From assembly GCA_964276515.1 (NCBI GenBank), contig OZ193909.1:13578001-13642000 (forward strand): 64,000 nt of DNA, written 5' to 3'. The DNA comes from Gordius albopunctatus. Lineage: Eukaryota. The notes under the pieces were generated by a model, which did not search any database, was not told where the DNA came from, and saw nothing but the letters and a program-made list of their open reading frames with translations. A program made the position numbers and the translations under genes. Shown in pieces: positions 8,800-57,774 of this stretch (position 1 is the stretch's first letter; every line of letters starts with the position of its first letter).

Positions 8800-11700
8800 A
8801 TGAAAACGGGTTTTGCATCATCAATTACTGCAGATCTTTTTAAACGTCAACATGATAATGTAAGCAAAAGTTCAATTGACTATAATATCTTTTAAAGATA
8901 GAGTACAATTTTCCAAGAAAATATCATGTGTCATCAGATTTTATTCAAAGGCTTGGTTTAGAAAAGGAATTGGAGGTAAAATTCTCATAATTTGTTATGT
9001 AAATTAAATATAGGGACACAATGGCTGTGTAAATTGTTTGGAATGGAATACCACTGGGGATATATTAGCAAGTGGTTCAGATGATTTTCATGTTGCTATA
9101 TGGAATCCTTTAAGCCATCAAAAAATATCTATGTTTAAGACCTCTCATCAGGGCAATATATTTTCAATTAAGGTATTTTAATGCAACCTATTTTTATAGA
9201 AATATTTATATGTGTTACCATATTATTTCTATAATTAAATATAAAATTAGTTCCTTCCATCAAGCAATGATGCTATATTGGTTACAGGAGCTGCCGATAA
9301 CTGTGTATCATTGCAAGATATTGAAAGAGGACAAACATTAACCACCTATAAATGCCATTTAGGCAGGGTCAAAAGATTGGCAACTACACGTGCAGAACCC
9401 TACATGATATGGAGTGTCGGCGAAGATGGTGTTGTTATGTAAATACTTGACCATACAAACTATTATTTATAAACATGTGGTTTTTAGAAAAAGAATTTTG
9501 GTGTTTGTAGAATTTGTATTAGTTTTGTAAATAAATTTATATATAAACCTAAATTTTATATAATATATAGGCAATATGACACACGTGAAGCAATACATCA
9601 GCATGGTGCTTCCTGTCCACACGTTCTTATCAATTTAAATACCTTCATGGGTCCTACAGCAGAAGGCAAATGTCTTAACTTAAATCCTGTAAGACCTGAG
9701 TTAATGGCTGTTGGTGCTAATGATCCTTATGTGCGACTATATGATAGGAGAATGCTAACACTGAGAACTGTTAAGGTAAATTTTGTAAGACAAAATAATC
9801 CAGAACATTCTACAATAATTTTGAGGTCAAATTTTATCATCACATGTGATTTACCAATTAAAAGTTTGAAATAACATATGTATCTTTTATGTATCATTGC
9901 ATGATTTAAAAGATACTAAATTTTTAAGATATCATCAAATTTTTATACTCAAATGTTTTTGATGATTAGTTTATTGTTCAAATGTGTCTAACTATGCATG
10001 ATGTTAACAATTTATTTTTATATGCACAATTAGTTCTATATATCTTTTTAAGATTGATATTAATAAACTTTTTAAAATTATATTTTTAATTTGTTCCATA
10101 TTGTAGTATCCCGATAATTGGAGTTCTTATTCGATTTGGGATAAGCAGAACTTATTTGCACTTCTAGGCACTCAAAACCCATCTCAATTTGACATACCTC
10201 TAAAAGCTTCCAGATATTTTATATCAGGTATATAACGCATACTTTTCAATTTAATTACTTATATTAGACTAGAAAATTTCAAATCTGCTTATTGTAAGAT
10301 ATTTTTTAAAGATTTATTTGTTATTAACAAGTCTTCAAAATTTTCCATATTTTGATGATTTCAAATTGTTGATACCGTGAGAGTTCTTTGTTAATAATGG
10401 CAACTAGGAAAATACAAAATTGAACAAGTTGAGATTTAAGCATCCTGGTTATAGCATTTTTCTTAGCTATTTGACACGCCTTGAATCATAATGCTAAGTC
10501 ATAATAATAACAGATTTAATATAAACAATTTAAGATGATTTGGGAAATTGTTTTTAATGGTACCTGAATTAATAAGTAATTTCACTTTGTGTATCTATTA
10601 TCCAGGGGAGATAGGGAGGGGCATCTCCCCCCCACCCGCTAATATACAAAACTTTTAAAATTCATAAAATTTATGGCTAAAATTAGGAAAAATTTTCATT
10701 ATACCTAATTTTTTTTATTGTTAAGGGTTTTTATATTGAAAATTTTTTTGCCCCCCCCCCCCACCTGGCTACTCTCATGGTTTCTAGTGTCGTATTTAAA
10801 TAGTTTGCTAGGTCAAATACCTTAAACTATTTATTTATATTAATTCCTATGCAATTTATGGGCTCGCTTTTTGTTGTCTGTTGTCCGTCCAACATGTATC
10901 TTAATTGTGCTGGTTCGATACCCGGAGATGGCAAATTTTTCTTTAAATAAATTAATATATTATTCTTGTTAATACCATTGATAATATGACTTTTTGACTG
11001 TGTCCTGGCTACTGACCAATGAAAAAAATGACCATTGGCCAAATTGTGATTCGAAATTTTTTTTTCGTTTTTGAATTGGTATTAATCTACTTTGTATAAT
11101 TAAAATGGATTCTAAGGTCACATCCCTTTCCGAGTTGGGGAGTACCGAAAACGGTACCGTACGCTGGCGTGTACCTACGTGACTTTTTCGCCCGACGGCA
11201 GCGAGCTACTCGCCAACCTGGGCGGCGAGCAAATTTACCTTTTCGACGTATCTTCCCGATCCGTGTACTCTCGTGACGATCGCTCATACGCCCAAATCCT
11301 GACCCTTAGGCCGCCTCACCCAGAGGCCCACTCGCCCTCTCAAAAACCGAAGTAATTTGTGAAAAAAATATTTTTATTCGTTCGTTTTGATTATTATTAA
11401 AATAAATTTATTCTGAAAATTTTTATTTGCGTGAAGGATAATGATGATATATAAACAAGAACTTTTCTAAAATAGTCAGTATACCTTATTAATTAATTCA
11501 CTAATAGTTTTCTTTAAAAAATTTGTTTTGTATTTTTTATTTATAACCAACGCTAATTTTTAACTTACTTGATATATCGGGAGGCACACCCCTCTTTGTT
11601 TTCCCCCTTGCTCATGGTAAGTTTATATTTTTAATAGATGAGCGGTTTCATATTAAAAAATATTATATTATATCCTTCAAATCACTCTCAAACAATAAAA

Positions 11701-14700
11701 AAAAATTTTGGATTGAGGCAGGCTTGAACTTCGTACTAATTTTTCTCAACGTTTCCATTATATATATGCATGTGGATAGGATTACTTTATTTTCGGGTTG
11801 TTAGGTGATTTGTATTTTATTCAATTGCCTCCTCCTTCCCTTTAGTTAGCCCCATTACAGCAATATCGTAGATAATGATTAAGGTGAGGGAGAACTAGTG
11901 TTGTGAAAATTGCACTTCTGTGCAAAATGTAATATGTGCAAAATGTAATATAGGCAAGGGTTAGGGTTAGATTTAGTGATTTATTTGATAATATGTATTT
12001 ATTTATAAAATAGTATTATACATTTTGATATAACTTATTTTGTTTCAATTAACAATTATAGTATCCTTTTATTACGTAGTTTTTTAGTACATATTACATG
12101 CGTATGAATATGCGTGAAAACCGGTCTCAATTTCTAAAATACGAACGTCTAAACATAAACAAACAGACTAAGGGCAAAGGGGGAGGATTATTAATTAGAA
12201 TTTTTAATTCGCTAGTTAACTGTGGTCCTCTTCAAATATTTTCGCAGCCCGGGTAGCTTAAATCATTTTACACACAGTTTTGCAGTGGCTAATCTAATAT
12301 ATTTACAATAATATTGAAACTTAAATTTTTGTAATATATCTATTCATTTTTGAGTGCGATTGTGCAACCTCGAGTATAAGATACGTATATCAAGCCTTGA
12401 CCGACATCTTAATTGGGCCAACAAGTTTCATTAATTTCCTTTTTTGTTTGAGACGTTTCGGAGACTATACCAAATATAAGATTTTAGAACAGGCATGATA
12501 CCAGTCTATAGTTTTTGGATAAATTTTTGAAAGGGGTGTAAACCTTTAAACACTATGACTTCATTGAATATTATATTACGTTTCTAGAGGTAGCATGAAT
12601 AGTAAAAAAAGTAGTTTAATTAAACCCCACGGATTTTAGGCTTTCTTTCAATTCTCGGAACGAGGATGGCCTCTGTGATAAAGTCAATCTCACGAACAAG
12701 AAACGCAAAACGGAGAACGGCTTCTTACCTCACCCTAATATTGACTGCCCCGAAGGTAACGTCTAGCGCACATATATTTTATGCGCACACATTTCCCCCT
12801 TTATATGTGCCTTTTTTTGTAATGTTTGTCATATAATCTAGTTGGTGATTGTGCTTACTTTTGACACTTAACACCGTAATGCAGTGCATAAAACGGTTTG
12901 AATCTTTCATTAAGACATACAACACGGTATGACCTAATATTTTGTTCGTTTTCTTTTAATTTTGTGTTTGGCGATTTCGTCTACTAGGGGACTTTAAAAT
13001 TTTGAAAAAAAAAATCCTAAATTGGGATTAAGTCGTGCAGCGAGATTTATAACGATATGATAGAAATTATTTTTGCGAACAAAATATTCACAGAATTTAT
13101 TTTGACAGCAATCATCGTTTGGAATATTACAGAGATCTATATTGTATATGTCTAGACTAAGTCTCTGCTATTAAATTACGATTTCTGGTATTGAGCTCCA
13201 CTTAATAACTTGATTTTTACATATAGACACGATAGATTTATTGCCGTATTATATTTCCTGCCCTGGTAAATTTCATTAGTTTAAGGACGAATGACAAAAA
13301 GCATCATGGGCGTGAACAGGATTTGAATCAGAGGGGGTCAATAATAATTTAGGGAGGGGCAAAATTATAATTTCTTGAAATTTAGTTATAATTGTATTAA
13401 ATTTTAAAGTTTTTTTTTATTTGGAGGGGGGGCAGTTGCCCCTCTCTGCCTCCCCCTGGCTACGCCCATGAAGAGTGTTAAACGCAAATATTTCCATTAA
13501 TAGCATTTTTTAATTTGTTTTTATGCTTTCCGCACAAAAGATACAAATAAAAAACTCAATACTTCTTTTTATGGTTTTTTTTTAAATGCAATGTTGTTAG
13601 TCATAAAATTGCATTTCGATTTCTTTCAATCCTATAGTTTCGAAAACTAGCCCAAAAGCTAAGGCATTAACCAACGGGCGCAAAGGCACCGAGGGCGAAA
13701 AACGATACGAAGCCCTGGTTCGGGACCTATTTGAATTGACCGTGACTAACACTCCACCCTTCGACACAGCTGATCGTCCTGAGCATCCATCCATGGGAGT
13801 GGGGGTAGGCGGTCAGATTTTAACGCCCCTAGCGGAATTACTGAAGAGCAGGGCTAATCAGATATTCGAACAAAACAAATACACAGAAGCTATAGCGCTT
13901 TACAATAAAGCCATAGCCTTGAGCCCAAAATCAGCGCTTCTGTTGGGCAATAGGGCAGCTGCCCTCATGAAACGACACTGGTAATCAATTAAAAAGCTAC
14001 GATACTGTTTTACAGGATTTTCTTTGTTGTTGGTAGAGAATTGTAAAGCCATTTTTTTAACCCGAACCCGACCCGAAAGCATTTTAAAATTCTCAACCCG
14101 AAATTGAATCGACCCGGAAGAATTTCTAAATTTTCAACCCTACCCGATGCCGGGTCGGGTTTCGGGTCACCCATGCAGTTCCCTAATTGTTGTTGGTAAT
14201 ATTTTTAAACTTAACATCGCGTGGTTTTAATGGTCCGGGCATGAGGCGAGTATTTTCCATATGGATGCATTAATAATAATTGATTGCAAATAAAACAACA
14301 GCCAGCGCTTGAATATTATTTTAAGCCAAGAAAGTTTTAATTGGGTCTCCGCACATTTAATTTAAGGAACTTAAAGCTAAATTGCTTTTGGAAATTTAGA
14401 CTGTTTTCCGTGATTCCAACGTAGTTAAATTTGACCATTAAAATTCCATCTTTTGGGGCGGCTTTAAAGGGACGGCGACGTATACGCGGCTATGAGGGAT
14501 TGCCTAAGGGCCTTGGAGTTAGACCCGGGTCATTTGAAAGCTCGTTTCAGGATGATCCGTTGCTTGTTGCACTTGGATAAAGTGGCCGAGGCTACCGCTT
14601 GTCTCGAACGTTTCAAGCAAAAATTTCCCGAATACGCCGCTAGCGGAGCTTGCAAAAGTTTGGAAAGCGAAATTGCTTACAAAGAATTCCACGATAAACA

Positions 14701-17700
14701 AGGGCCGGACTCCCCGAAAAACGGTAAATTGAAGAATTCATTACTGAAAATTTGGACATCTTGATTAAAATTAGGAGTTTTTTTTGGGCTCTTATATTGA
14801 AGGTGAAGTTATTTATAATGGCTCTGAAGAAAATTTTTGATCGAACCTGGCATGGGCGGCGTAGCTAGCATTGGAGGGAAGGGCAAAATGATCATTTTTT
14901 TGAAATTTTAGCCATAATTTCGATAAATTTCAACAAATTTTTGGATTTAGAGGGCTCTCTGTCCCGCCCCCTGGCTACGCCCATGAAACCAGGGATATTG
15001 TGTGCCATTAATATAAATTTAAACACCAAAATGCTGCAACAGGGATTAATGGCTTAACAATTGAGCCTATTAAAAGTGGAACTGGATAAAATTAATCAGG
15101 ACCCCGCTATCTAATAATTCATTTAAAAAATATCTATTGAAATTATAGTTTGCTAATATGATCTTGGTGGGTTTGAAATAAGATGTCCTTTTTTGTTGCC
15201 TTAAACTACAAATTTATAAAGTAAATGTTTCAAAAATAATTAATTACACCGGCCAACAAAAGTTATTAACCAAAAAAGGTTAACCGACTTTTATAGAGTT
15301 TTTTGGGTGAACACGGAGATTTTTATACCTCAAGCTTAAAAAAAGGTTAAAATTTGCGAAAATTGGCATTTTGCCCCTTTTTGAAATAATAAGCTTAAAC
15401 TAGAACATCTAAGTTATAAAACCAACTTAAAGCTCGTTGATTAATTTTTGGTATTTTATTGAAAATTATAATTATCTCTACAACTATTACTATACGCTTT
15501 AGACACCTGCTAAGTTGTTGAAACGATTGTCTACCCGTACGGTCCACCCGTAACTAAGACTTTAGTACGTGGACTTGAGACATACTACAACCATGCCAAG
15601 GCCCGTTTTTAATGCACCCTGGCCCGTTAGCCCCCCTCCCCCCGCCCAATTATAAAAAAAATTTTTGCAACATTAAATATGTAATTTTAATGGTATAATG
15701 AATATTGTGTCTCGAGCTATTAGATCTTTTTATTTGTTATACAAATTTTTTCTTGCATAAACGGGGTTGTAACCAAGATTTGGTCGACGTTTATCACTCG
15801 TTAAATCAATCGAATGCTAAGCGTTTAAGATTTTCACGTTATCTTTCACCGTCAAAATTGCCTTTATTTAATCACATTGGCATATTCATTGGTTTTAGAT
15901 AGCGCGACATTTGAATCCACTTCCCTGAGGCCCATGTCTCAAACTCTCGTCGATTTCTTGCGCGACACTGATCCTATCGATGAACTGTTTTTAAATGTAC
16001 CGAGCGGTGAAAACACCATACCCACGGCACAGTCTGAACCCTTGTAAGCCTTTTTTTTTATTAATTTATATCATGTTTCACTCATAATATTTATCCACTT
16101 TTTAGTCGAAAAATTGAAACTAATATAAAATTGGCTGCTAGTCATGACATCGCAAACATGTAGTCAAATATATTCCCTATATTTAAGCTTGAGCATCTTC
16201 AATTACAAGTTGATATTTCTTTATGGTCATACCCGGAATTAATGGTTTCTTCAATACCTAAATGCTCTTTTGCACATCTTTTATTTCATTTTCGCACAAT
16301 TATCATTTAATATAATCCCGTTTAACCGTCATTTTGAAAGGAAAATCAACTATAGATGGCGCTTAAACGAAAATAGTTCTTTCATTGGATTAGTGTTATT
16401 TATTGACTAATTCAATCAGATTATAAGCTAACGATTTGCAATTGGATTGCTAAATAAATCGAAAGTATATATAGATTACCAATATAAAATTAAAATAGTA
16501 CCTTTTCCTTGACACTTTCAAAGTGGCGGGTTAAATGTGGAACACTTTTTTAAAGGGAATGAGCAGTCTATTAGTCTTTCATCACGTAAGATCATATCCA
16601 ACATACATTAATTTCTTGGACAGATTGACCCTTACTCTAATTATACCTTTGTAAATTGCCACTTTTAATTATCCACGCACTTTGTTCTTAAAAATGCCTT
16701 AGTTTGGAGCAAAACAGTTCGGAAACGCGCGTCCCCATGGCCCGTCGTTTGCACTGGGAACTGAGCGCGGGCTTAGGGGCTGCAGATGACGATTTGGAAG
16801 CTGATAACCACGATGGGAACGTCTCGTACACGACCCTTAATTTTAGCGATAATTCTTCCCTCTCCTTCAACACTTACGCAGAGAGGCCATCCGACCCCGC
16901 TGCTCTTAACTCCAAATTTAGGATACCCACGAAGGAGAGAGTGTGGAAAGGGGGCAGTCCAGACTATTCGCGTCGGTTTTGTGGGCATTGCAACACTACC
17001 ACCGATATTAAGGAAGCCAACTTTTTTGGCAGGTATGGCCTTAGTCATGCATGATGAATTAGGGAGGGACAACTATCACCCCCCCCCCCCTTATGGATCC
17101 TAAAATTATTATTATTTATAAAAGTCATTATTTTGCCCCCCCCCCGTTCCCCACTAATTTTAATCCAGGCTAAATTCAATGCTGTCTTTCCATAAAAAAT
17201 TAACGTAATTTGTACAAAAACTATTATATCATATGGGAACATATGAACTGTATTGGAAACTTTTAAGGTCCGCTATCTTATTAAATATGTAATTTAACAT
17301 GGAAAATTCCTTAAATTTAACAGCTGTTCGCACAAAAACGTTATTCAAGATTTAGTATGTATTTAAGTTATTACTAAGCTTTCGTGCAATGAGTCTCACG
17401 ACTTAATTATGTTGAACCCCATTCGATCTTTGTTTTTTAAAGTTCTTTGGATCAAGTAACACGCATGTATTTTGTATTATTGTTGTGGCGCAGCGATGGT
17501 CAATACATAGTGGCCGGATCGGATGACGGATACTTTTTCGTGTGGGACCGTGCTACCACCAATATATGCAGAGTTTTGTTAGCCGACGATTCTATCGTCA
17601 ACTGCCTCCAACCCCACCCCTCCACTTGCTTGCTCGCGACCAGCGGGATCGACCCCGTCATACGCTTGTGGAGCCCCCGACCCGAGGTTATATGCACATA

Positions 17701-18665
17701 AATATATTTTCTGTATGAATTACAAGGAATTATGCTTGGAGTTTTTTTGTAGTAAAATCGAAATGCTTACATTACACTGTATTAGGAATCACGTACTTTT
17801 AATTGTTAAGAAACAATAATTCAAAAAATATTTTTATATCATGTAGTAGCAATCATTTTTTGTTGATCCTCAGATGTCGTCTCGTTTTATAATTTAAATC
17901 TCTTTAAATTAGGAAAAATTGGAAAAAAAGATAGTGAATCACGAGAAAGTTTATGAAAAGCTTTCTTGGCAATAAGAATTCAGTATTTATAAAATAAATG
18001 TGAAAAAGGGATGGCGTTATATTAATGTAATGTTTAAGGTAGGGTAGATTGGGGTTTTGGGATCTCTTTTTAAAAAAACACAACTACTTTTAAACGTCTG
18101 TTATTATGCATTATATGTTCAGGCTTCTTAATTAGATAAATAAATATTAGGATGAAACAAAAGTGACTTTATGCGTTTGTTTTAATTTAAGATAGTGATG
18201 CGTTGGGGTAAAGTGAGCAATATTGATATTGTGGAGGGGGGAAAGGCAAAGAATTCTTAATTTATAACCATCAACGTTTTTACGTTTCCCATTGAGACTT
18301 AAAGCTTAGCCCCTACAATAACCTAATTATTTATTACAGCTTAGGTCCTCCTTTTATTTTAAAGCCCTAAAATTTCTTTCAATTCTTTTTTTTCCTCGCA
18401 GAATAACAAGGAAGAACGCGAGATCGCAGATTCAAACGACGCAGCGGCTGCCAATCAAAAACGTATGAACGCTGACCCTATAGAAGTCATGCTTATGAAC
18501 ATGGGTTATCGCGTTAACAATCCAACCACCACAACTACCTCTTCAACCAATGCCCCCGAATCATCTGATACTACCCAAGCTAGTCGCCATGGAATTAGCC
18601 CAAGAGCGGGTCTGTTTAGGGGCCCCGACATCTCATCAACTACCGTCCATTGCAGGACTAACTAA
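8800..18665 (+). CDS. WDTC1: WD and tetratricopeptide repeats protein 1 (adipose/DCAF9), 14 exons, ~896 aa
   Basis: Manual splice model, all GT-AG with consistent phases: 8800-8859, 8898-8975, 9014-9172, 9251-9438, 9571-9775, 10107-10227, 11117-11351, 12640-12755, 13638-13980, 14470-14723, 15899-16043, 16703-17032, 17494-17686, 18402-18665 (2691 nt). WDTC1 motifs: RLGLEKELEGHNGCVNCLEWN, TYVTFSPDGSELLANLGGEQIYLFD, TPR GNRAAALMKRHWDGD, FCGHCNTTTDIKEANFFG, ANQKRMNADPIEVMLMNMGYR. Exons 8 and 11 rest only on splice sites and frame continuity. Confidence 0.95.
10838..11075 (+). mobile_element. Partial HINE-like copy in WDTC1 intron 6
   Basis: TTCCTATGCAATTTATGGGCTCGC..GTCCGTCC start and internal repeat, reverse complement of the 1983-4383 family. 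Confidence 0.75.
13306..13470. mobile_element. Short hAT-type MITE (CATGGGCGTAGCC family)
   Basis: Termini CATGGGCGT...ACGCCCATG; related copies at ~14850-14985, 22757-22919, 37693-37845, 48079-48185 and 48927-49063. Confidence 0.75.
14034..14184. mobile_element. Short MITE with ACCCG subterminal repeats in WDTC1 intron 9
   Basis: Imperfect TIR TAGAGAATTG/CAGTTCCCTA, flanked by TTGTTGTTGG-like duplicated sequence. Confidence 0.55.
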
Positions 18666-32879: not shown

Positions 32880-35472
32880 TTGTAGAGTCAAAAGGAGAGA
32901 AAAGATATTAAGCTTTTTTATGAATCTACTACGATAAATTTTATATCGGCATAGGCCCCTCAAGGTGGAAGCTCTGAGACGGAAAAAGAGTGTTTTTGGA
33001 AAGAGCTTGAAGATTTTCTACTCCAATTTGGCAAAGAGGGACTAATAATTATTGGACAGGACCTCAATGGACTAGTGGGTAAATTAAGGGGAGGATTTGA
33101 AAGAAATCACGGTGGCGGGGTTACGGCCTAAGAAATGAAGGAGGTACGGAAATTCTAGAAATTGCTCAAGCTTTTAACCTAGCAATAGAAAATAACTTCT
33201 TCAAAAAGAGACAGGAACATCTTATAACGTACAAAAGCGGCAGCCGTACCACTCAGATAGATTTCTTTCTAGTCAACAGAACGCACTTAAAGTATGTTCA
33301 AAATGTTAAGGTAATACCGAGTGAAATATTGGCCTCCTAACACAAGCTGTTGGTGATGGACTTTATATTAAAGGGCTTTAAAGGGCAAAAGGTACAAAGA
33401 GTAGCCGCTACTATACAATGGAGGAAACTAAAGGATGGTATTCAACATTTCAAGGAACAAGTAATTAAACATGCTGTATTTAAGAAAAATACTTCATGTG
33501 AGGATCAATGAAATGGTATAGCTGCCACAATGCGAAAAGCGGGACGACAAATATTGGGTCAAAGCAAGCCCACTAAAAGAATTCTAGAAGTGCAAAATTG
33601 TATCAAGGAAAGGAAGAGATTGTACAAAGTTTGGTATAAAAGCAAGGATAGTAATGATAAGCAAGCTTACCAAGTAGCTAAAAGATCGCCTAAAAAATTC
33701 GTAGCGAAAGCTCAAAACAAGGTGTACGACGATATAAATGTAAAACTAAACTCAAAGGAAGGAGAAAGATTGATCTACAAAATCGCAAAGTCAAGAGTCC
33801 GAAATTCAAATATTACCTAGAATCCAAGCTAATCAAGGATCAAAAGGGAGAAATACTAACACACGACAGCCATATACTACAAATATGGTACGACTATTAT
33901 AGCGATTTATCAAATGAAAAAGGGCTTTTAGTTGAAGACATTAACCAGGAAAATACAATAGGAGAATTAAACACAGGGGACTGGATCACGGAAACGGAAT
34001 TCAAAGTTGCTATGGGTAAACTAAAGTCAGAAAAAGCTCTTGGACCAGACAATATACTAATAGAGGACTTCAAAGCTTTAGGCAATACTGGTGCACAATT
34101 CCTCGCCAACCTTTTCAACAAACCTTGAAAACGTGTGTAATGCCTAACGAATGGAGGGATAGCTACATGATCCCGATATACAAGATGAAAGGGGACATTC
34201 AGGATTGCAACAATTACAGAGGGATAAAGCTTATGAGCCACACTTTCAAGGTGTGGGAAAAAATTATTGAAAAACGGCTTCGGAGTTTGGTTCAAATTCG
34301 AGATAACCAATTCGGATTTATGCCGGAGAGGTCTACAGCAGACGCCTTAAACAGTGTTAGAAGATTAATGGAACGGTCTAGAGAAAGGGAAGAGGATTTG
34401 CACATGTGTTTCATCGATCTAGAAAAAGCGTTCGATAAAGTTCCTCGTACTTTAGTGTGGAAATGTCTTGAAGAAAACAATGTGCCAGAATTATACGTCA
34501 GAGCAATAAAAGATATGTACAAGGGAAATAGAACGTACGTTAAAACAACGGTGGGGACTACAAAGGGCTTTGCCATCAACACTGGAGTTCATCAAGGTTC
34601 AGCTATTATTCCCTTCCTATTCATAATGATAATGGATAATATTACCAAGGATTTTGGCGAGGAAGCTCCTTGGGCAATGATCTTTGCAGACGATATAATC
34701 CTCTGTGCCAAAAGCGAACAATAATTGGCTAACACTGTAAATAGATGGGTAAATGCAATAGAAGAAAGTGGTCTCAGGGTAAATAGAAAGAAAACAGAAT
34801 ACATGAAGACAAAGTTTAAATCGGATGAAAACCAGCAAAGTGCATCCCTTAGTTTAGGCGATTGGCAACTTACAAGCGTGGATTCCTTCAAATATTTAGG
34901 ATCAACACTTCAATCGGATGGTGGAATGGATAAAGAAATCTAAGCAAGGATAAATTCCGGATGGCTCAATCGGAGGGACTTACAGGTGTTCTGTGTGACA
35001 AAAACAACTCGAGAAGACAAAACATACAGCCAACAGTCCTGTATAGCTCGGAATCATGGGCTATACGTAAAAGAGAAGAGCAACGTCTTGCGGCCATGGA
35101 GATGAGAATGCTAAGATGGGTTCTAGGAGTAAGCAAAAAGAAACATAGGTAAAAGGAAGAAATACAAAGAATTTTGGGTACTACATCAATTGTGACAAAG
35201 CTCCTAAGCCCTAACAAATAGACTAAGATAGTATGGCTATTTCAAAAGAAGGGACGATAGCTACGTCAAAAAGAAAATCGAGATGATAAATTTAGCAGGG
35301 AAACGAAGTAGAGGAAGAGGAAGACCCAAGCTTACCTGGATTCATAAAATACGGCATTATATGAAAGTTCACAAGATAAAGAAAGATCTATGTAAAAATA
35401 GAAACAAATGGGAACGAATGCTGAAAGGACTGACCACCAGCCTAGGTGACAAGCAGTCATAGAAAGAAGAAG
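32880..35472 (+). mobile_element. Degraded RTE-clade LINE (AP endonuclease + reverse transcriptase)
   Basis: TYKSG..TQIDFFL, NYRGIKLMSH, QFGFMP, FIDLEKAFDKV, GVHQGS, IFADDI, FKYLGS; multiple stops and frameshifts; GAA tail. Confidence 0.92.
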
Positions 35473-37974: not shown

Positions 37975-40253
37975 CTTCTTCTTTATCAGTTATTTGGTCC
38001 CACAGTTGTTGGGTTTGTTTTAATACGTTTCTTCCATCTTTAACGGGTGAGTGCCATATCTTGACTAATCTTTTCTATTCTCATAACTTTGTCGACTTGC
38101 CCTTTCCACGTGACATGAGGTCGTCCCCCATTCTTGAGAAAGTCAAAAGTCATTCGTCATATGTTCGAGCTTAGTATACCCCAAGCTCCAACGAATTCTC
38201 AACTCTCAGGCTTGTAATAGCTTTCTTTCCGTGGTGTCCATGTTTCACTCCATAGAGTAACACCGGTCTTACGATGGATTTGTAAGCTTTGTTCTCCAAC
38301 CATATTGGCATTTTCTGGTCGTGCATTACACCTGATATACTTTGCCTTTTAAGCCATCTTTTTTTGGATCCGGTCATTGACTTCTGTTGCGCAACCTCTC
38401 TCTTGATATAGCATCGAACTGAGGTATGAAAACCTGTATATTTTTGGGTACTTTAGAGGTCATCGAGCGATGGGCTGCTTGTAACGTTCATATCCATGTA
38501 TACCGATTTCAATCGTTGACTTTTAAACCATATACAGCTATGCGCTTTGATTTTTCGGCTTCTTCGAAAACTTTCTCCTTTGTTTCCTCGCATATCATCG
38601 GCATATAGCATACACCATGGGGATGGCCTATGAATGTCTCTCGTTATTGTGTGTATAATTATATTTAGTAAAAATTGACTTAAAGCCGACCCTTGATAAT
38701 CCAATTTCAGCCCAAAAAGATTTAGAATTTTGAACTGTAGTCCTAACGCAAGAATTTGAGCTTCATAAATATTTTCATAAGCCGTATATATGCGTCAGGG
38801 ATATTTTGTTTTCTCAGACACCACCATATTAAATCGCGAGAGACAGTGTCATAAGGTTTCTCCAAGTCGATAAAGACCAAATGTAGGTCTCTTCTCTTTT
38901 CACCATATTTATCCATCATTTGCCTTAGTGCGAAGTTGAATCGATTGTATATTTGCCGGCCACAAATACGAATTGGTTAGCCGATATTATTGCAGCGGCC
39001 TTTTTTGCGGCCTTAGCGTCCCTATACTCTTGATAATCCTCCGAATTTTTTTATTTATGCCACCGTCTCTTTCGATGAAATCCCAAACCGATTGATCCCA
39101 CCACGATAGTTCCCTATTCATGGCTTTGCCTCCTTTGGTCTGTCCTAGAACACGAACGCGTTTTCTTTTATGTCCTTAGTTTGCGTCTCATCGCCGCCTA
39201 CGTCCCTTTGCAACTTTCTTGCACCCAAGAATGAGGAAGCTTTTTGATGGTATTCTTCGTTTGTCAAAATATCCTTTAGCCTTTCATATCAAATTCGAGG
39301 TTCATAGATCTTTCTTCTTTCGGGAAATACCTTCTGTCAATTAACAAGAGGAAGATATTGCCTGGCGATTTCCTCTTCCGGTATTACTTTGGATAGTCAA
39401 TTTGACTAAAATGACTCCCACTTCTATTAGTCACAATATGGTCTTCGCGTTTTTGGAAATACGTGTTAACGATCGCCATGTCGTATGCTTGGGATACTTA
39501 AAAAAAATTTCCCCCTTCTTTGTTCTTCAGACCATGCCCATAGCCTCTAAGATTGCGTTCATCTCCGTGGCGATCTTTTCCGACGTGAGCGTTGAAATCC
39601 GCCACAATAATTATCCTTTCTTCCAGTCCGATTCCTTGTATTTCCTTTTCCAATGAATCGAAGAATATGTCTTTTTCTGATTCCCTACACCTAATTTTGG
39701 GAGCATACGCAGACATAACAGTTAAGAGGCCCCCTGGATTTCCAATCTTCACCCTAATTGGCCTGTCTAAACAACGCTTGACTTCCACAATCTTGTCCTT
39801 GAATGATTCGCTTAGAACGATACCAACCCCATTCCTACGATTTGGCGACCCATTGTAAAATAGTTTGTACCCTTCTCCAAACTCTCGGGCTTTGGTTCCG
39901 TTCCACCTCATCTCTTGTAGACAGGCAATGTGTACTTTTCTTCTTTTAGCATTTGTGCGACCTCGATGCCCTTCCCCGTCAACGTTCCCACATTCCTGCA
40001 TGTTATTCGAATTCTTTCCACAATTAATTTCCTTAACCGCCTTCGTTGTGAGTTGGTCAGTAATTCTAGTACATTTTTCACATTGCACGGGCAGGGTGTG
40101 CAGTGTGCGTCGTGGAGGATTTAGCTTTCTCTTGTAAAATTTTATTTGAAACTATCATGATTCCGGAGTTGGTCTTTATAGCCGGTTTCAGACCTGACGC
40201 CAACCCTCCACTTTTGGCACACGGACTTGGGACCATCGTAGGTAGTGTTTTAA
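37975..40253 (-). mobile_element. RTE-clade LINE with both ends present, internally deleted and degraded
   Basis: APE ORF 39498-40088 (IACLQEMRW, NGVGIVL, SAYAP, ADFNAHVG), RT remnants, GAA tail; 12-bp TSD GCTTTCTTCCTT (37963-37974 / 40254-40265). Confidence 0.9.
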
Positions 40254-41087
40254 GCTTTCTTCCTTATACCTTAAAGGCAAAATTTCTCATAACAAAATTT
40301 TAATGAAAAATAGTAATGACCTACTTTTTAAAAGTCGCATTGATTACTCTAATTATGCACCATTTCAAGTTATAAAATAAACCTTTGCCCTATTTTCCAA
40401 ATAGTCACCTAGTTAGTGTATAAATTATAATACTGATTCGCTCTAGAGCCAAATTTTAAAGTTTTGCAAGTTCCTACAGTCAAATAAAGCAGTATAATAT
40501 ATATTTTTTGTAAATCGATTGATTTATTAGAAGTTATAAACATTAAAAAAATAGACACAGTGTATAAAAACGAATAATATATTTATATATAAATTAAAGC
40601 TCTAAGGCATCATGGGGTTCGTCCTCGTGAAGCGGCCACCTATCGGCCAGGGATTCAAATTGTATTTCGCAAGAAGGATGCCAATGTTTTGTTGAAGTAA
40701 AACATTAGAGAATATTTGGAAATTGGGCAACATTTGCTGTTTCTCTAAAAAAAAGTGAATCGCGCTTAGTCCGAAAGTCCTTGAGCAAGAGCCGACAATG
40801 GGGTGAAAGTGTTGTCTGGGAGGAAGGTCTGGTATTTTGTCTTCTTGTCTTCTGCAAGAGTTATAGCATTATAAATTTGGTTGGAGGGGCGAAAATGTCT
40901 AGACAGGTGAAATCCCATTCAAAGGGTAGACCCTTTTGCCAGGGGATGAGAGTTGAGCCACCAGTCCCCATTCTTGCTATGAAGGGTCTAGGACCGATGG
41001 AACGCTAGCCTCTTTAAGGGAAGCCTGCAGTGAATTAATTTTGGTGTGCCTGATATATTTGAACTTGTTTTTAAGACAGTATAGAGG

Positions 41088-42357
41088 CTCAGGACTGCGG
41101 CAATTACAGAGGTATCAAGCTAACCTGTCACTCCTTGAAGCTTATGGAAAGGATCTTAGTAAAAAAGCTGAAAAACGAGGTGGAAATATCGGATAATCAA
41201 TTCGGATTCGTGGCCGGCAAATCCACAATCAACTCAATCTTCGCCCTAAGACAAATTATAGATAAGTATGGTGAAAAGAGGAAAGACCTACACATGGTTT
41301 TTATCGACTTGGAGAAAGCTTATGACATGGTCGCCCGCGATTTAATATGGTGGTGCCTGAGGAAACATAATATCCCTGATGCATATATACGGCTTATGAA
41401 AAATATTTATGAAGCTTCTAACTCTTGCGCTAGGACGACAGTTGGAGACCCTAAACCTTTTCGGGTTAATATTGGATTACATCAAGGCTCTGCTTTAAGT
41501 CCCTTTTTATTTAATATAATTATAGACACGATAACGACGGACATTCAAAAGCCATCACCATGGTGTATGCTATATGCTGATTATATAGTACTATGCGAGG
41601 AAACAAGGGAGAAAGTATTCAAAGAAGCCGAAAAATGGTCAAAGCGCTTAGCTGGATATGGTTTAAAGGTCAATGATCGGAAAACAGTATATATGGAAAT
41701 GAACGGTACAGGCACCGCATCCCTGGATGACCATCTAAAGTACTCAAAAGTAGACAGGTTTACATACCTCGGCTCGATGCTACATCAAGAGGGAGGTTGC
41801 GCAACAGAAGTCAATGCCCGGATCCAAAAAAGGATGCCTTAAATGGCGAAGTATATCCGGTGTAATGTGCGACAAAAAAAATGCCAATATGGTTGAACAG
41901 CAAAGCTTACAAATCCATCGTAAGACCGGTGTTACTCTATGGAAGTGAAACATGGGCATCAAACACTACTGAAGGAAAGCTATTACATTACAAGCCATAG
42001 AGATGAGAATGATACGATGGAGCTTGTGGTATACTAAGCTCGACCATATGACGACTTTCTCATGACAAAATGGGTATTTGACCTATGGCGGACATGATTA
42101 ATGAAAATCGGCTAAGGTGGTATGGGCATATACTAAGAAGAGATACGAATGACGTAAATCGAAAAGTACTGGACATGGAGGTACCTGGCAAGAGAGGAAG
42201 AGGACGACCCCGCATAACGTGAAAAGGGGTTTATCTATAAAACTATGGAAACTAAAGAGATTAGTCAAGATATGGCACTCACACTGTCAAGATGGAAGAA
42301 ACTTATCAAAACAAACCCCACCAATGTGGGACCAAATAACTGATAAAGAAGAAGAAG
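41088..42357 (+). mobile_element. 5'-truncated RTE-clade LINE
   Basis: RT ORF 41135-41842 (QFGFVAG, FIDLEKAYD, GLHQGSALSP, YADY, FTYLGS), (GAA)n tail, TSD ATAGAGG. Confidence 0.92.
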
Positions 42358-49592: not shown

Positions 49593-50117
49593 CTATGCAT
49601 TACAGAATTAAAAAAAGTGAGTTTTGTAAGCTGTAAATTTTATAATCCCCTTAAAGTTATTTTTTGTAAATATTGTAAGAACACCAATATTTGTTGTGAT
49701 ATAAATTATATTTTATAGAAATTTTATTTTTTAATTTAATAGTGAAATAAGAGTTTAAAATGATTTCAGTTTAAGTATTAATAAGATATCTACATTATTA
49801 CCTGTGAATCAAATATTAACTATAATTTATATGCCATTTAGTGCTATTTTTAAGACACTAATATGGTATAAATTTATCCCTATCCTTTTCAGCATGTGGC
49901 TAAAAAATAATAACAGACAAATAACATTTTTGCTATATTTAAAGCTCATCAGTTTGCCATTGTTAATTTTCTAGTCACATACTAATCAATATAGTTATAT
50001 ATATAAGGCCAAATTAGATTGAGTTCACTTTTATTCCATGCCTTAATATATAGGCTACCAACTATAATTTCTAATTTTTAAACAAACTTGACAAGAATTT
50101 TATTGATATGGTACTAA

Positions 50118-51143
50118 TTAAAACACATTGCTCTCAAACTTAAGACACTTGACAACATTCGCATTTGGCCCATTGTGTTTCCTCTTTTTACCCTTTTCAA
50201 TATTTTCTTCCAGAATGAAGGCAGGTAAAGGTAGCTTGTAAGAAAGTGTAGGGAGTGGTTGTGAATAAAAATATGCACTTTTAAGGCATTGACTTGAATC
50301 CCATCTTTGTAATGGGTTATACATAAACATAAACTCTAAAATCTCCAACAAACTATCATCTGCAGCTGTAAATATTTCTCTAAAATGTATTTTGTCAAAC
50401 ACCTTAAATGATATATAGTCTGGAAGTTGAGTTATCCCTGGCCATATTTCTTCATTAGGTGTGCCAAGTGTTTCAAATATTTTTGATAATTGCTCTAAAT
50501 CAGAATCACCAGGAAAAAATGGTACTCTGAGGAGTAATTCGGCTAATATACAGGCCATGGCCCATATGTCAATGCTTGTTCCATATATTTTTGCACCAAA
50601 TAAAAGTTCAGGTGGACGATACCAACGAGTTACTACCTGATTTGTATAAATTCTATTGGGGGAGCCAAAATACTTTGCTAAACCCAAATCTCCCAATTTT
50701 AAAATTCCTTGTTTATTTACCAATAGATTGTTTGGCTTTATATCTCTATGAAGGATCCAATTTTTGTGCAAGTATTCTAGGCCATTCAATGCCATTATCA
50801 TGTAGGACTTTATGTTAGCTTGAGTTAAAACTAGAGATGTGTCTTTAATTATAACTTCAAGGTCTGTGTCCATAAAATCAAAGACTAGAGATATTTTGCT
50901 GTTGTGATATAAAGTATCCTTTAAATATATTAGATTGGCATGGTTTAGTTCATGCAATAGCTTTATTTCTCTAAGTGCAGTACGATTAATACCATCAACA
51001 ATATCAGATTTCATTCCAATTTTAATTTTTTTTATTGCAACTATTTCTTGGGTTAATAAATTTTTTGCTTTATATACAGTGGCGAATTGTCCTTCCCCTA
51101 AAAACTTGATGTTTTCGTAATTAGTATAGTTTTTGTTATGCAT
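50118..51143 (-). CDS. CDK7: Cyclin-dependent kinase 7 (CAK/TFIIH kinase), intronless CDS, 341 aa
   Basis: [27 protein letters not shown] (CDK7-specific NRTALRE helix), [11 protein letters not shown]-loop [23 protein letters not shown] shortly after the stop. Confidence 0.97.
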
Positions 51144-51149
51144 ATTAAT

Positions 51150-51431
51150 CTAATTTTATTCCCAAGTTTGGCGACACATAGGGCAATGGGGATTAATTTG
51201 TTGGGAATCAAGCCATTTCATAATACAATGCGAATGAAAACAGTGATTGCATTTGCCCCATAAAATTGGGCAATTATCGCCGGGTATAGTACAATTAGGA
51301 CAAGTATTTTCAAAAGCCATTCGACATATGCCACAGTTGTCATCATTAGCAATCCATTTCCAATTAGCGACAGAGTTCCACGATTTAATTTTAATTTTCA
51401 TTAATTATTAATGAAAAGTTGAAATCCATAC
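51150..51431 (-). promoter_or_regulatory. Putative 282-nt 5'UTR intron of CDK7 enclosing the whole ANAPC11 ORF
   Basis: Minus strand: TTG|gtatgg ... APC11 ORF ... GAATAAAATTAG|ATTAATATG(CDK7). No AG between the donor and this acceptor. Confidence 0.65.
51156..51401 (-). CDS. ANAPC11: Anaphase-promoting complex subunit 11 (RING-H2), 81 aa
   Basis: MKIKIKSWNSVANWKW..DDNCGICRMAF...CP.C..PGDNCPILWGKCNHCFHSHCIMKWL...CPMCRQTW matches the APC11 consensus and lacks the N-terminal extension of RBX1. Confidence 0.96.
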   Translation of the reverse strand: MKIKIKSWNSVANWKWIANDDNCGICRMAFENTCPNCTIPGDNCPILWGKCNHCFHSHCIMKWLDSQQINPHCPMCRQTWE

Positions 51432-52607
51432 CAAGCGATAAAGTGAAATACTAAATAAACAATCATGGAAAGTAGTAGCAAGGTTATGTAATATACAAAA
51501 AAACTAATTTCTTCAATAATTTGTATCTATAGCATGAATGGAATCATCTAACGAGATTGACTATAGGAATGAAGACAATTCGATACAAATTAAATTTTCA
51601 CACCCCATGGGACACGTGACCGCGCCCTATATAAACCAAATTCACACCACCGCCATTATTCGCTCGATTTTTTCCTACGCATATAATATTATGTTCCCTT
51701 GTTTATACGCATTCTGCCCCCTTCTTACCTTTGCGCTACGATTTACCCTAAATTTTCGCTTTTATAATACTTATACATATGATATAGAGTAGAAACAATA
51801 AACGCCTCTGGTAGAACGATAACGAAACCAGGGGATCTGGGAGAAGGGCTTAACCCTTCCTCCAGATTAATTACTTTTGTTGCCCACAATAAACGAAAGC
51901 AATTTAAATTTGCCATGTAATTTTGTGTTAATAATTTTTCCGTCTTCCTAAGATATTAAATACGGTAAGTTATTGACTACAAAAATTTTTTTAAAGATAT
52001 AATTATTTTTTATAGGCGTACCATGGGCTTGAAGCTTATCCTAATACACTATAGATGGATGCTGGAGAATCCGGAGATGTCATATTCAATAGCTCTTAGA
52101 CAGAGAATACCTTATATGAAAAACCATGTGGCTATTGCCCCCAACAGATGCGCATATGCATCAGACTCTCCCTACATTGCCTTTTAGCCAATAGGAGTAA
52201 ATTCGGCACAATTCATTTTTCCAAACTGGCCTTAAAATAGCCAACGCACCATCGTTCTGAGAGACCCTTGACTCTTTTTTGGAAGGAATGGGACCCGACC
52301 TCTCAGCTCTTATCACATAGCAAAATGGTCTACCACTTAAATAAGATTTTATATTTAGACATTTTCGCATCATTTAAGCAAAATTAAGTAAGCCCCCAAG
52401 AGCTTAGTTAGTGCAATCTAAGGTTGAGCCCCTTCTAACGCCAAATGGCGCATCAGGCCACGTTAGTGATAACGTGTAAGTATGCTGTAAAAAAATGATT
52501 AACATACAGTGTAATTATGACATGTAAATATGTAATACCTATTGACTTGAAAGTAATGTAAAGCCTTTAATGATAAGGTCGTAAATTAATGGTGCGTGAG
52601 GAGATCC

Positions 52608-53310
52608 TTACTGGGGGAGCCGCAATATTTTGTTCTTTGAGAAGTCTTTCCAACGTTTCCTGTCTTGCATGATGGGCAGCAATGAATTCCAATCATGACT
52701 CATTGTTTGGACATCGCGGAACACCTTGTAAAGCCAGCTGCCATTGCATTTGCGACCTTTTAGCTGGGGTAGACACCAGAACAGGGAAGATAGAAAGTAG
52801 TTGGTTCCCTTCCTCCGCACTTGATGTGCCAAAAAACCCCATTTTCTCGCGAGTAGAATATTTTTAATTGGAGGGATTTCGCAACGCACCCATAGATCCT
52901 CGTTGGTTATTCTCAACAGATAAAATATCCGGCAAGCGATACGTAGCATTTTATTAAGACTGACTTGCAGCTTCTTTAAGCTAGGAGCCTTCAGCGACCA
53001 AGATTCGCAACCGTATAGGAGGATTGGTAGGATCGTGACTTTGAAAATCCTCAAACGCGTCTGGAGCGTCAGTTGACGTGAGCGCCATATCACCGAGCAA
53101 GAGTAGAATTTGACCATGGTCCGACGGAGCTTCGATTCGGCATCCGCTTCGGCGTAGGTATCTGGAGTAAGCTCCACTCCCAAATATCGGACTTTTCGAG
53201 ATGCATTTATTACGTTGTTGTTGATTACCAGAGTAGAGTTCGAAGGATCGTTTATGCAGATCATTGATCATTTGTCTGGGTTTATAAACAGTCCTGCTTT
53301 AAGCAAAATT
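52608..53310 (-). mobile_element. Non-LTR retrotransposon 3' fragment (RT thumb / C-terminal region)
   Basis: VRYLGV, RLRIFKVTILPILLYGCESWSL and DRKRWK are typical of RTE-like LINE C-termini. Confidence 0.75.
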
Positions 53311-53774
53311 AAAATGGCCTAACCCTCCCAGAGGACCGCAAGACGGTACCAGGGCCTCCTTCCATCTAAAATATTGTCTCATTGTCGCCTGCTCAGGAAC
53401 TTTTGAAACTGGCGCATCAGCCGTTTCAAGGAAGTAGGCAGGTTGACATATTTTTAAATATTTTCCTAGATTTTTGCTTCAGCAAAAAATTGGCATCCTA
53501 ATCGTAAAATAGAATTTAATATCTCTTGCTTTTATCTTGAGGATAATACTTTCAATGCTTGATTTAATGAATTTTATTTATCATTTTTTTATTAATTGCT
53601 ATTCTATTTTATATCTTTTTTGTTTTTGTAATTTTTATAACGTCCTATAAAATTGAAGTGGTTAAAATTTCTTATTGAGAGGCGTCATATATTCAAATTG
53701 AGATAAAGTATTTACATTGTGTAATTACGCGGGTGAATAATAATTCCCGTAAATTATGTGTATTCAAATTATGG

Positions 53775-56700
53775 TAATTTGAAAGGCACCATAGAATCTC
53801 TCTATACTACAATTCGAGCAGCCATTTTATATCGTACAACCAGGTCAGAGTCAGCAAGGTTCCGCGAGCTGCTTACTAACGTAGAGTTGGGTGACCGTAA
53901 GCCCTCCCAAATTTACAGACACATGAAGGCACTCCTCGGTACAGCTAAAATGGACGAGGCTATTCTGAAACAGCTGTGGCTAGACAAACTGGACAGAAAT
54001 ATGACTAGCATTTTAGCCATTTGCGCAGGTGACCAGACTCTATCTAAACTAGCTGAATCAGCCGATAGGATCGCCGAGACATACCGCACCCCTCAATTAT
54101 CAAATATCATTCCAAAAGCGAACAATGAATTGGAAATACTCCGGGGCATGGTTGAAAAACTCAATCTGAGCATTGACACACTACGCCAGCATCTCGACCA
54201 GCAAAAACGACTCGTAACAATGGACAGAATTTCGCCTAGGCGTTCCCAGTCACCTTCAAGACCCCCCACTGATGTTACCCCGACTGGTTCTGGTACCATC
54301 AGCAATTCAGGCACAAAAGCTCCAAATGTCAATCAACGTGTAACTACACTATGGCCGCAGTGTAAAACCATTCGGCCAGCCAGGAGCAGCGACGCCTTGT
54401 CTAGGCCTATCAAAGAGTCGTTTTTTTTTAGTTTTGGATAAATCTACTGGAATGCGTCTCCTTATAGACACTGGGGCCGAAATTAGTGTTATACCGCCTC
54501 CGCCCAACCATCATCTTAAACCCTCATATCTACCTGCAAGCAGCCAACACCATCACCATCAAGACTTATGGTCAAAAATCTTTGGCACTGGATCTTGGTT
54601 TGTGCAGGAATTTCCAATGTGTATTCACAGTTGCCGACATGAAAACGCCGATCATCGGGGCGGATTTCTTAAGCAACTTCAATCTCCTAGTAGATATCCG
54701 ACGACAGTGTCTGCTGAACCCCATCACCGCATTAAAATCGTATGGCCATTCCACTAACTCGAGTTTGTATAATGTACAACTCGCTATTAAGGTAGACTCG
54801 CCTGATTTTTTAAACTTATTAAGAGAATTCCCTAAAATTTATTCCCCCCTAATTACAAGGTTAACGTAAAGCATCACGTCGTCCATCACATAAACACCCA
54901 AGGCCCACCTGCTTACGCCAAGCCTAGGCGCCTAGACCCCGTTAAACGGAAAATAGCTAAACAAGAGTTTACGCATATGCTTGAATTGAGTATAATCCAA
55001 CCTTCGGACAGTCCCTAGGCATCCCCTCCGCACATGGTCCTAAAGAAAGTACCCGGATATTGGCGACCATGCGGTGATTACAGAGCCCTTAACACTCAAA
55101 TCGTACCAGATCAATATCCTCTCCCACACCTCCACGACTTTTCACTCAACTTGGCGGCACAACAATCTACAGCAAGATAGAACCACCAAATTCCCGTCGC
55201 CCCCGAAGACATCAAAAAGACAGCAATTACCACACCCTTCGGGCTATTCAAATATTCACGTATGCCTTTTGGGCTACGCAAATCCGCTCAAACCTTCCAA
55301 CGTTTCATCGATCAAGCCTTTCGAGGCCTGAACTTCACATTTGCTTATCTAGATGATTAATTGCAAGCTCATCAATCACCCAACACTTACACAATCTCCG
55401 TCAAGTTTTCCAACGCCTACGTGAGTTCGATCTCAAGATTAACGTAGGCAAGTGTGAATGGGGACAGCCCGCAATTAACTTCCTAGGCCACCATGTATCA
55501 CCACAAGGTCTAACTCCGGTACCAGATAAAATCTCAACTATCAAAAGTTTTGCCACCCCAACAACCATGACGCAACTTCGTCGCTTCATAGGTATGGTAA
55601 CTTTTTACCGACGTTTTATACCTAGCTGCGCACTCCACCTCCAGCCATTAACTGATCTGCTCAATGACTCAAAAGGACCCCTCGTTTTAACACAAGACGC
55701 ACAGGATGCATTCGACAAGACTAAGGAAACGCTTGATGAGATCACGACCCTGAATCACCTTGTAGAGAGCGCCACTCTTTCATTAACAACCGACGCGTCA
55801 AACACCGCCATTGGCGCCGTCCTGCACCAAACATTAAATGGAGAGAGTAGCCCCCTGTCATTTTTTTCGCTTAAATTAAATACGACTCAGACGCGCTACA
55901 GCACATTTGGTAGAGAATTACTTGCTATTTGCCTCTCTATAAAACATTATCGACATGTTTTAGAAGCCCGAGACTTCACGATTTACACAGATCACAAGCC
56001 TCTGACCTACACTTTAACTAGTAAGTCTGACAAATACTCACCACGGGAAATACGACAGCTAGATTACATATCACAATTTACATCCGACATCCAATTCATC
56101 AATGGTAAGACAAATATCGTGGCGGACGCTCTTTCGCGAACAGAGATAGATTCCATACAACTTACAAATACCACAATAACGGAAAGGTTAGCTATGTCAC
56201 AACAACGGGAACAATACTCAACCGAAGAGCTGGGATCCCTTAAACTGGAACAATGTTCAATTCCAGGTACGAGTTAAACCCTTACCTGCGATACATCCAC
56301 CACAATTCCAAGACCCTTAGTACCCAAGAGCCTACGACGCGAAGTTCTTGAGCACCTACATGGTCTGTCGCATCCAGCCTCCCGGCCAACATTAAAACTG
56401 ATTTCCAAACATTTCGTCTGGCCTGGAATGAATAAAGAGGTGCGAGATTGGACGAAACATTGCGTTTCATGCCAAAAATGCAAGGTAAATAGATACACCA
56501 TCACAGTTTCAGCCACTTTCGCGGAGCCTGGCGCAAGATTCAGTCATGTTCACGTGGACCTCGTGGGCCCATTACCCCTTTCTAATGAACACATTTTCAC
56601 CGCAGTCGATCGTTTTACCCGGTGGCCCGTGGCAATCCCAATCAACGATGCATCAGCTGAAACTGTAGCCCAAACATTTTTGACGCATTGGATAGCTAAC

Positions 56701-57774
56701 TACGGAGTACCCACTACATTAACCACAGACCGAGGCCCCCAATTCCAATCTGCCCTGTTACCATTATATAACCACTACAGCTTACCATCCACAAGCCAAT
56801 GGTATGGTAGAGCGATTTTATCGACAGCTAAAAAGTTCGATTATGACAAAAGGAGACACTACCAATTGGTCTGATCGAATTCCCCTTGTACTCCTGGGTA
56901 TCCGAAGCACCGTCAAGGAAGACTTATCCTGTTCGAGCGCTGAACTGGTATACGGCACCTCTTTGAGACTAACAGGAGATTTTTTGGTTCGCTTCACACC
57001 CACCAGATTATCAAATATCAAACAACAGATTACCAACGATTTGGTTACAGCTACTCACGTATTTGTAAAGATTGACCGGCATCGGAAAGCTTTAGTCCCT
57101 CCGTACGAAGGTCCTTACAAGGTAATCGAAAGACATTCTAAATATTTCGTCATAGACCACAATGGAAAAAAAGACACCATTTCATTTGATTGTTTAAAGC
57201 CAGCCTTCCTTGAACCGAGATCCGATTTCCCCAAATCCATGTCCCTCCCCTCCAAGCCGATCTACGTTAAGCAAACCTACCATACAACCCGCTGTGTTCA
57301 CTCCTCCCAAAGCAAGCAATTCTTCTTCTCCATCAACCAAAATCACTCCTACACCAATTACCACCAAGTCCGGCCGTCATGTTCATTGGCCCAAGAAGTT
57401 TTTCAATTTTATGTAACACTCCACGTCTACGAAGGGGACTATTTGTAGGAATTAAAATGCGAATTGAGAATATAAATGTAGCAGATTGTCAACTCCAGGT
57501 GTTTTATCATTGGCATGATTTTCCGCAATCCATCGCTTCATCCAAACATTGCGGCGTCATTTCTTATTGAATCAATAATCCTTCGCTCTACTAATTATAT
57601 CCCATCATTATTATTCTGTATTCCGATATTGTAATCATTCGCTCTATCAATTATAATCGACCATTATTCTTCAAATCCCTTTTACCAATGGCTAAAAATC
57701 ATCATCATTCTTTATTATTCCTTATCCGCGTGAATAAAATATAAGTTCTACTTTTCAGTGTAAACACACCTATA
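53775..57774 (+). mobile_element. Degraded Ty3/gypsy retrotransposon (gag, protease, RT, RNase H, integrase, 3' LTR; 5' LTR missing)
   Basis: gag ELGDRKPSQ; protease [32 protein letters not shown]; RNase H TTDASNTAIGAVL, YTDHKPL, NIVADALSR; integrase HVHVDLVGPLP, TDRGPQF; PPT GAAGGGGA at 57431; LTR ~57444-57774. Confidence 0.93.

Follow-up and report, generated by a model that had tools for sequence, protein, structure and literature searches.

A predicted 5'UTR intron of CDK7 encloses an AG-free APC11 open reading frame in Gordius albopunctatus

How is CDK7 expressed in Gordius albopunctatus, where its open reading frame (ORF) begins directly behind that of APC11? Both ORFs lie in a 64,000-nt stretch of contig OZ193909.1 (assembly GCA_964276515.1, positions 13,578,001 to 13,642,000), called the window here and numbered from its first letter. 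A preliminary description of this DNA had placed them on one strand with 12 nt between them, too little for a separate promoter, and had proposed that the APC11 ORF doubles as a 5'UTR intron of CDK7. Re-examination confirmed the arrangement, found both ORFs intact, and located an AATAAA spanning the APC11 stop, starting at 51160, as that description had reported. The features of the core locus were as follows:

51401-51156, minus strand: APC11 (ANAPC11) ORF, 81 aa, RING-H2, intronless, with no AG dinucleotides
51155..51160, minus strand: AATAAA across the APC11 stop, not conserved in a close relative (see below)
51144..51155, minus strand: APC11-CDK7 gap, 12 nt, containing the predicted acceptor, whose AG ends at 51150
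51143-50118, minus strand: CDK7 ORF, 341 aa, intronless
50099..50104, minus strand: AATAAA, candidate shared poly(A) signal, 14 nt past the CDK7 stop and unchanged among the differences listed for the relative

The upstream product matched Pfam zf-ANAPC11 (E 9e-33) and was 60-70% identical to seven animal APC11 proteins. The downstream ORF found its best PDB matches in CDK7 (E 4e-132, versus 1e-87 for CDK2), and its best single-domain protein match was the CDK7 of Gordionus (68% identical). A Gordionus APC11 was absent from the 7 near-length and 108 longer APC11 protein matches. The two ORFs share one frame and are separated by two in-frame stops, the second of which is the TAG of the predicted acceptor. 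In the literature within reach of our search, which left most subscription journals outside, no report of the APC11-CDK7 locus was found.

A second organism, represented by three runs of one study and about 95% identical at the locus (the relative), was used for comparison. A single contig covered APC11 and CDK7, with 94 differences and 6 gaps across about 1,800 nt. The seven sequencing runs found included two from the same organism and four from the second, none of them recorded as RNA; X1-X4 covered repeats and intergenic DNA in the manner of genomic runs, and X7 gave no contig over 51110-51570. The linkage, which the preliminary description had proposed to check in related genomes, was kept in this relative, as was the 12-nt gap region. 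Codons 1-81 of APC11 carried six synonymous and no non-synonymous changes, and the 19 coding differences listed for CDK7 comprised 13 synonymous and 6 non-synonymous ones. Both ORFs are thus shown to be under purifying selection. The possibility that APC11 is a pseudogene was ruled out by this synonymous excess. Seventeen differences fell between 51110 and 51540, of which 14 are listed and the other three probably lie close to the ends; none of those listed touched the predicted donor or acceptor. No change was listed in 51414-51463 against six in 51464-51513, a weak comparison because these windows were picked afterwards. Further upstream, a repeated sequence occupies about 51604-51935, and in the relative about 80 nt replace the repeat; a TATA-like motif near 51634 is therefore unlikely to be a conserved promoter.

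At the junction of the two genes, the relative has a Ser codon in place of the APC11 TAA stop, and its ORF continues for two more codons to end on the TAG of the predicted acceptor, with loss of the AATAAA. Because the ORFs are in frame, and only one stop separates them in the relative, readthrough of the stop codon could in principle produce an APC11-CDK7 fusion protein. However, two in-frame stops stand in the present genome, and 0 of 108 longer APC11-containing proteins was such a fusion (the only kinase-domain protein among them being a plant LRR receptor kinase), and we regard readthrough as extremely improbable.

A splice that removes APC11 would provide CDK7 with a message of its own. 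The preliminary description had pointed to a donor 30 nt 5' of the APC11 ATG and to a TTAG acceptor 6 nt 5' of the CDK7 ATG, and both motifs were present where it had placed them, the GT at 51431 and the AG ending at 51150. Together with a third site upstream, they define these features:

51150..51431, minus strand: CDK7 5'UTR intron of 282 nt, predicted from sequence, enclosing the entire APC11 ORF; its sole AG is the terminal one
51426..51434, minus strand: predicted donor, TTG/GTATGG; the WD40/TPR gene of the window has an intron that begins with the identical hexamer, at 17033
51451..51470, minus strand: strong acceptor-like site that precedes the donor by 19 nt (6.8 bits, top 4.6%)

The acceptor-like site at 51451..51470 is possibly the end of a further 5'UTR intron, or else a leader-addition site. 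Splice sites were scored with a matrix built from 14 introns of two other genes of the window, WD40/TPR and MGMT. These control introns (33 to 1175 nt) were supported by Pfam matches on the exons and by open frames once joined; at least one uncertain intron between 11352 and 13637 was excluded, and for the MGMT control donor at 24696, use of 24687 instead would keep the frame just as well. The predicted donor scored 5.0 bits (top 7.9% of all GT; real donors 2.0-9.5, leave-one-out), and the predicted acceptor reached 2.3 bits, which places it in the top 24.3% of all AG (range for real acceptors, -6.9 to 7.3). The acceptor ends in AAATTAG, which also closes local introns at 9250 and 24425. On their own, the donor and acceptor motifs are usable, with middling scores, and are not distinctive. 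A short intron excising only the APC11 stop was also considered and rejected: the GTs at 51177 and 51175 scored -5.8 and -9.7 bits, and the RING would be cut.

The sequence between the two predicted splice sites carries the stronger signal. No AG occurs between the donor at 51431 and the terminal acceptor AG of the 282-nt intron, and the AG-free tract extends slightly further upstream:

51152..51450, minus strand: 299 nt free of AG; on the two strands of the window, a single such run is longer

The longest such run (1050 nt, 3245-2196) lies in T-rich repeat-like DNA, and the next three (268, 245 and 211 nt) are G-poor. With the APC11 protein held fixed and codons drawn from local usage in five local coding sequences, the 246-nt ORF would be expected to contain 7.3 AGs and contains none (P 9.6e-5); P was 1.5e-5 to 8.7e-5 when CDK7, the leucine-rich-repeat (LRR) gene of the window or both served as codon reference. 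AG was the most depleted of the 16 dinucleotides in the ORF (z -3.6); it was chosen post hoc from the sequence, and a correction for 16 dinucleotides leaves a P of about 1.5e-3. The depletion is visible in codon choice: Arg is encoded by CGN (2/2) and Ser by TCN (4/4), with AGR making up 21 of the 36 Arg codons in CDK7 and the LRR gene; A is the last base of every Lys (6), Glu (2) and Gln (3) codon; and it closes none of the 13 codons that precede a G-starting codon.

Sequences used as controls retained AG throughout. Overlapping 82-codon windows from the five local coding sequences held 8-20 AGs in 39 of 39 cases (lowest P 0.024), and all eight uninterrupted APC11 cores recovered from metagenomes held 7-20 (z -1.8 to +1.5), five of them being scored with a neighbouring-ORF codon reference and three with a uniform null; the remaining 34 of the 42 metagenome APC11 loci were interrupted or partial and were left unscored. 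Because local windows and other APC11 cores retain AG, the purge is specific to the APC11-CDK7 locus. It also goes beyond ordinary intron needs, since the local introns longer than 130 nt (8 of 14) contain 4-44 internal AGs, with AG-free 3' zones of 35-187 nt. We infer that, with introns of 33 nt being spliced in this genome, each AG within exon-like sequence adjoining a donor would be hazardous. None of the eight intron changes in the relative creates an AG, which is a weak result (with six synonymous changes and no new AG, P is 0.39).

A spliced leader, added at 51451 for APC11 or at 51150 for CDK7, with the AGs between the two sites purged against mis-addition, would likewise account for the depletion, as reinitiation and an internal promoter would not. 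The AG-free run starts right after the 51451 acceptor-like site and ends at 51150, and nematomorphs are close to nematodes. However, the two sites have a usable donor between them, unchanged among the differences listed for the relative, and the 12-nt gap is too small for the usual operon signals. In spliced-leader operons a poly(A) signal is conserved ahead of the trans-splice site, and the AATAAA found here is changed in the relative. No match to Rfam was obtained within the 64-kb window, which is weak evidence against a leader; the literature search found no paper joining nematomorph and spliced leader, and intron, operon and splicing go unmentioned in the main text of the Gordionus genome preprint. 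A leader-based arrangement is, in our assessment, quite unlikely.

Start codons provide a second line of evidence. Ten ATGs stand between the APC11 and CDK7 starts, the last at 51179, and would block scanning to CDK7, thereby favouring the intron model. CDK7 transcription might instead start inside the APC11 3' end, past this last ATG, from a promoter overlapping the ORF; according to the FlyBase 'rule-benders' account, monocistronic transcripts of downstream cistrons usually come from an alternative promoter (PMC4528330). Such a start would nevertheless require a 5'UTR of under about 35 nt and would leave the ORF-wide AG purge unexplained, which makes it a decidedly improbable source of the CDK7 message.

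We consider very doubtful an unspliced dicistronic mRNA of the kind presumed at lemming-like loci, with CDK7 translated after reinitiation or through internal entry. Drosophila lmg is indeed an intronless dicistronic mRNA with Apc11 first (PMC3372440), close downstream partners of APC11 occur in metagenome loci L001-L003 and L005, and position -3 is A at the CDK7 start and T at the APC11 start. The weak ORF1 start context is shared with the leaky-scanning bicistrons of green algae, but in these AUG is depleted before ORF2 (PMC11892635), whereas here ten ATGs are present and AG is purged instead. In addition, translation of lmgB from a dicistronic construct was undetectable (PMC3372440), and this reading gives no reason for the AG purge.

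We therefore return to splicing as the probable basis of CDK7 expression: one promoter would yield a single APC11-CDK7 pre-mRNA, which would become CDK7 mRNA when the 282-nt intron is spliced out and APC11 mRNA when it is retained. The preliminary description had proposed this scheme with or without proximal polyadenylation of APC11. Its intron part gains support from the AG purge, the ten internal ATGs and the conservation in the relative. The polyadenylation part fared worse: the AATAAA over the APC11 stop, 5 nt ahead of the acceptor, differs in the relative, so that proximal polyadenylation finds no support. This hexamer is expected by chance 0.06 times per 30 nt and occurs 5 times in 51600-49900.

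In the proposed mechanism, the donor 30 nt before APC11 would be used, and selection would have cleared every AG from the APC11 codons. With introns down to 33 nt spliced in this genome, a nearer AG would capture the donor and ruin both messages. The retained form would include CDK7 and end at the distal poly(A) site, with only APC11 translated from it. Its output would be affected by one further element:

51391..51429, minus strand: upstream ORF (uORF) of 12 codons, out of frame, with its ATG within the donor (51429), overlapping the APC11 start

The ATG of the uORF has a better context than the APC11 start, so that less APC11 would be translated from the retained form; ribosomes would have to scan past the uORF leakily, or a start site further downstream would have to be used. 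Splicing is envisaged as incomplete at a roughly fixed rate, because the same dividing cells need both proteins. APC11 may be regarded as a small ORF that recurrently comes to lie upstream of other genes, with the splice bypass allowing an essential partner to be expressed.

Among known systems, the predicted working of the APC11-CDK7 locus most resembles that of unc-17/cha-1 (VAChT/ChAT) in C. elegans. In loci of that type, the nested gene has a poly(A) site within the intron at which it ends. At APC11 no such site was found: no conserved poly(A) signal belongs to the gene itself, and in the relative its stop codon falls on the acceptor. The nested APC11 differs further in being one short intronless ORF, predicted to be expressed via intron retention. 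In unc-17/cha-1, a 5' noncoding exon is common to the two genes, one of which lies inside the first intron of the other (PMC3875643).

The Drosophila lemming locus (lmgA, which is Apc11, and lmgB) shares with ours an Apc11 that is an upstream intronless ORF near a second ORF. Monocistronic ends were also detected there by RACE, and the second ORF, lmgB, is dispensable and not detectably translated (PMC3372440); Drosophila Apc11 has, in addition, been entered as a conserved uORF (PMC2276209). The lemming gap is 92 nt, with no intron reported in the available part of the source, versus 12 nt here, and the dispensable lmgB contrasts with CDK7 as partner. No LURAP-like match was found in the window, and the partner here, CDK7, is neither lmgB nor a LURAP-domain gene. 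The FlyBase 'rule-benders' account gives 159 dicistronic pairs in which small ORFs are over-represented, with some monocistronic forms arising from alternative splices that disrupt one coding region, and a promoter, together with 5' noncoding exons, common to 130 genes (PMC4528330). The APC11-CDK7 locus is similar in that monocistronic forms are predicted to arise by splicing; neither this pair nor a codon-level AG purge was found in the available text of that account.

The partners of APC11 elsewhere were unrelated to CDK7. A CDK7-like match was present in 0 of 42 metagenome APC11 loci, many of which are short and none of which was identified as nematomorph. In three of these loci (L001:75-3510, L002:64-1213 and L003:58-3441), APC11 was followed by an uninterrupted site-1 protease (MBTPS1) ORF after gaps of 19, 106 and 57 nt. 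APC11 carries a long N-terminal extension in these three, as if one spliced dicistronic transcript were formed with MBTPS1; 8-15 ATGs stand before the start of MBTPS1, and there is no AG purge. A LURAP-like ORF stood 12 nt after APC11 in L005:498-1690 (E 1e-19 by tblastn against an insect LURAP protein; E 0.047 in Pfam), and a weak LURAP-like match followed APC11 in L039:801-1618 (E 0.008). Four of the 108 longer database proteins (P0135, P0151, P0152 and P0224) were insect APC11-plus-LURAP gene models, which we read as mis-joined neighbouring genes. APC11 was seen immediately 5' of a LURAP/FAM89-like gene in several animals, four insects included, and this arrangement is possibly an old form of the lemming dicistron. 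Among the literature matches listed for FAM89, LURAP or lmgB with APC11 (15 of 31), the lemming paper and one gene-list data paper alone concerned this pairing. In L009:537-2051, an ORF of 324 aa that gives a Cep57-like domain match (E 1e-5) lies 231 nt past APC11. A conserved pyrimidine tract and CAG/GTATGA occur about 30 nt past the APC11 stop in L020-L022, L024-L027, L029 and L042, and read as a 3'-region donor or as an acceptor-donor overlap.

Other APC11 dicistron-like loci contain many ATGs and no AG purge, and their partners can apparently be expressed without a bypass. These unrelated, changing partners suggest that APC11 may share a ubiquitous promoter with its neighbours rather than a function. 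They also weaken the idea, put forward in the preliminary description, that a single processing choice sets the ratio of a CDK activator to a ligase subunit as a regulated switch, and we found no support for that claim. CDK7 is, moreover, the TFIIH kinase and is required constantly, and the APC/C is controlled via Cdc20, Cdh1 and inhibitors more than by the level of APC11. A more elaborate history, in which a mobile passenger APC11 landed before CDK7, had its codons rewritten as a clean intron with its stop as the acceptor, and came under retention regulated by stage or cell cycle that trades CDK-activating kinase against the catalytic subunit of the APC/C, seems unlikely to us. A regulated switch, if true, would be a far more remarkable finding.

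If the splice is real, one stretch of DNA has been selected both as a conserved coding gene and as an intron, legible from its letters alone, and a dicistron has had a route to acquire an essential downstream gene. Looking for an AG purge could then be an easy way of finding concealed ORF-in-intron loci where a genome lacks RNA data, and we would predict that annotation overlooks such APC11 genes. The position of APC11 upstream of changing partners also bears on the question of why lemming is dicistronic.

The remainder of the window contained several other genes and repeats. The WD40/TPR gene (8800-18665, plus strand), which we take to resemble WDTC1, has at least 12 introns, two of them of 38 nt. 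The MGMT gene (24979-24318, minus strand) has three very short introns (33, 47 or 38, and 33 nt), and 14 nt of its start context are common to the CDK7 start. The LRR gene (46628-44814, minus strand) is intronless and encodes a protein of 604 aa that has a stalk rich in Thr/Ser and, at its C-terminus, a hydrophobic segment. Broken LTR-retrotransposon-like sequences (gag, protease, RT and integrase, recognised by eye) and LINE-like reverse-transcriptase fragments were located at 53737-57448 (plus strand), 52608-53298 (minus strand), 33512-34724 and 39498-41842.
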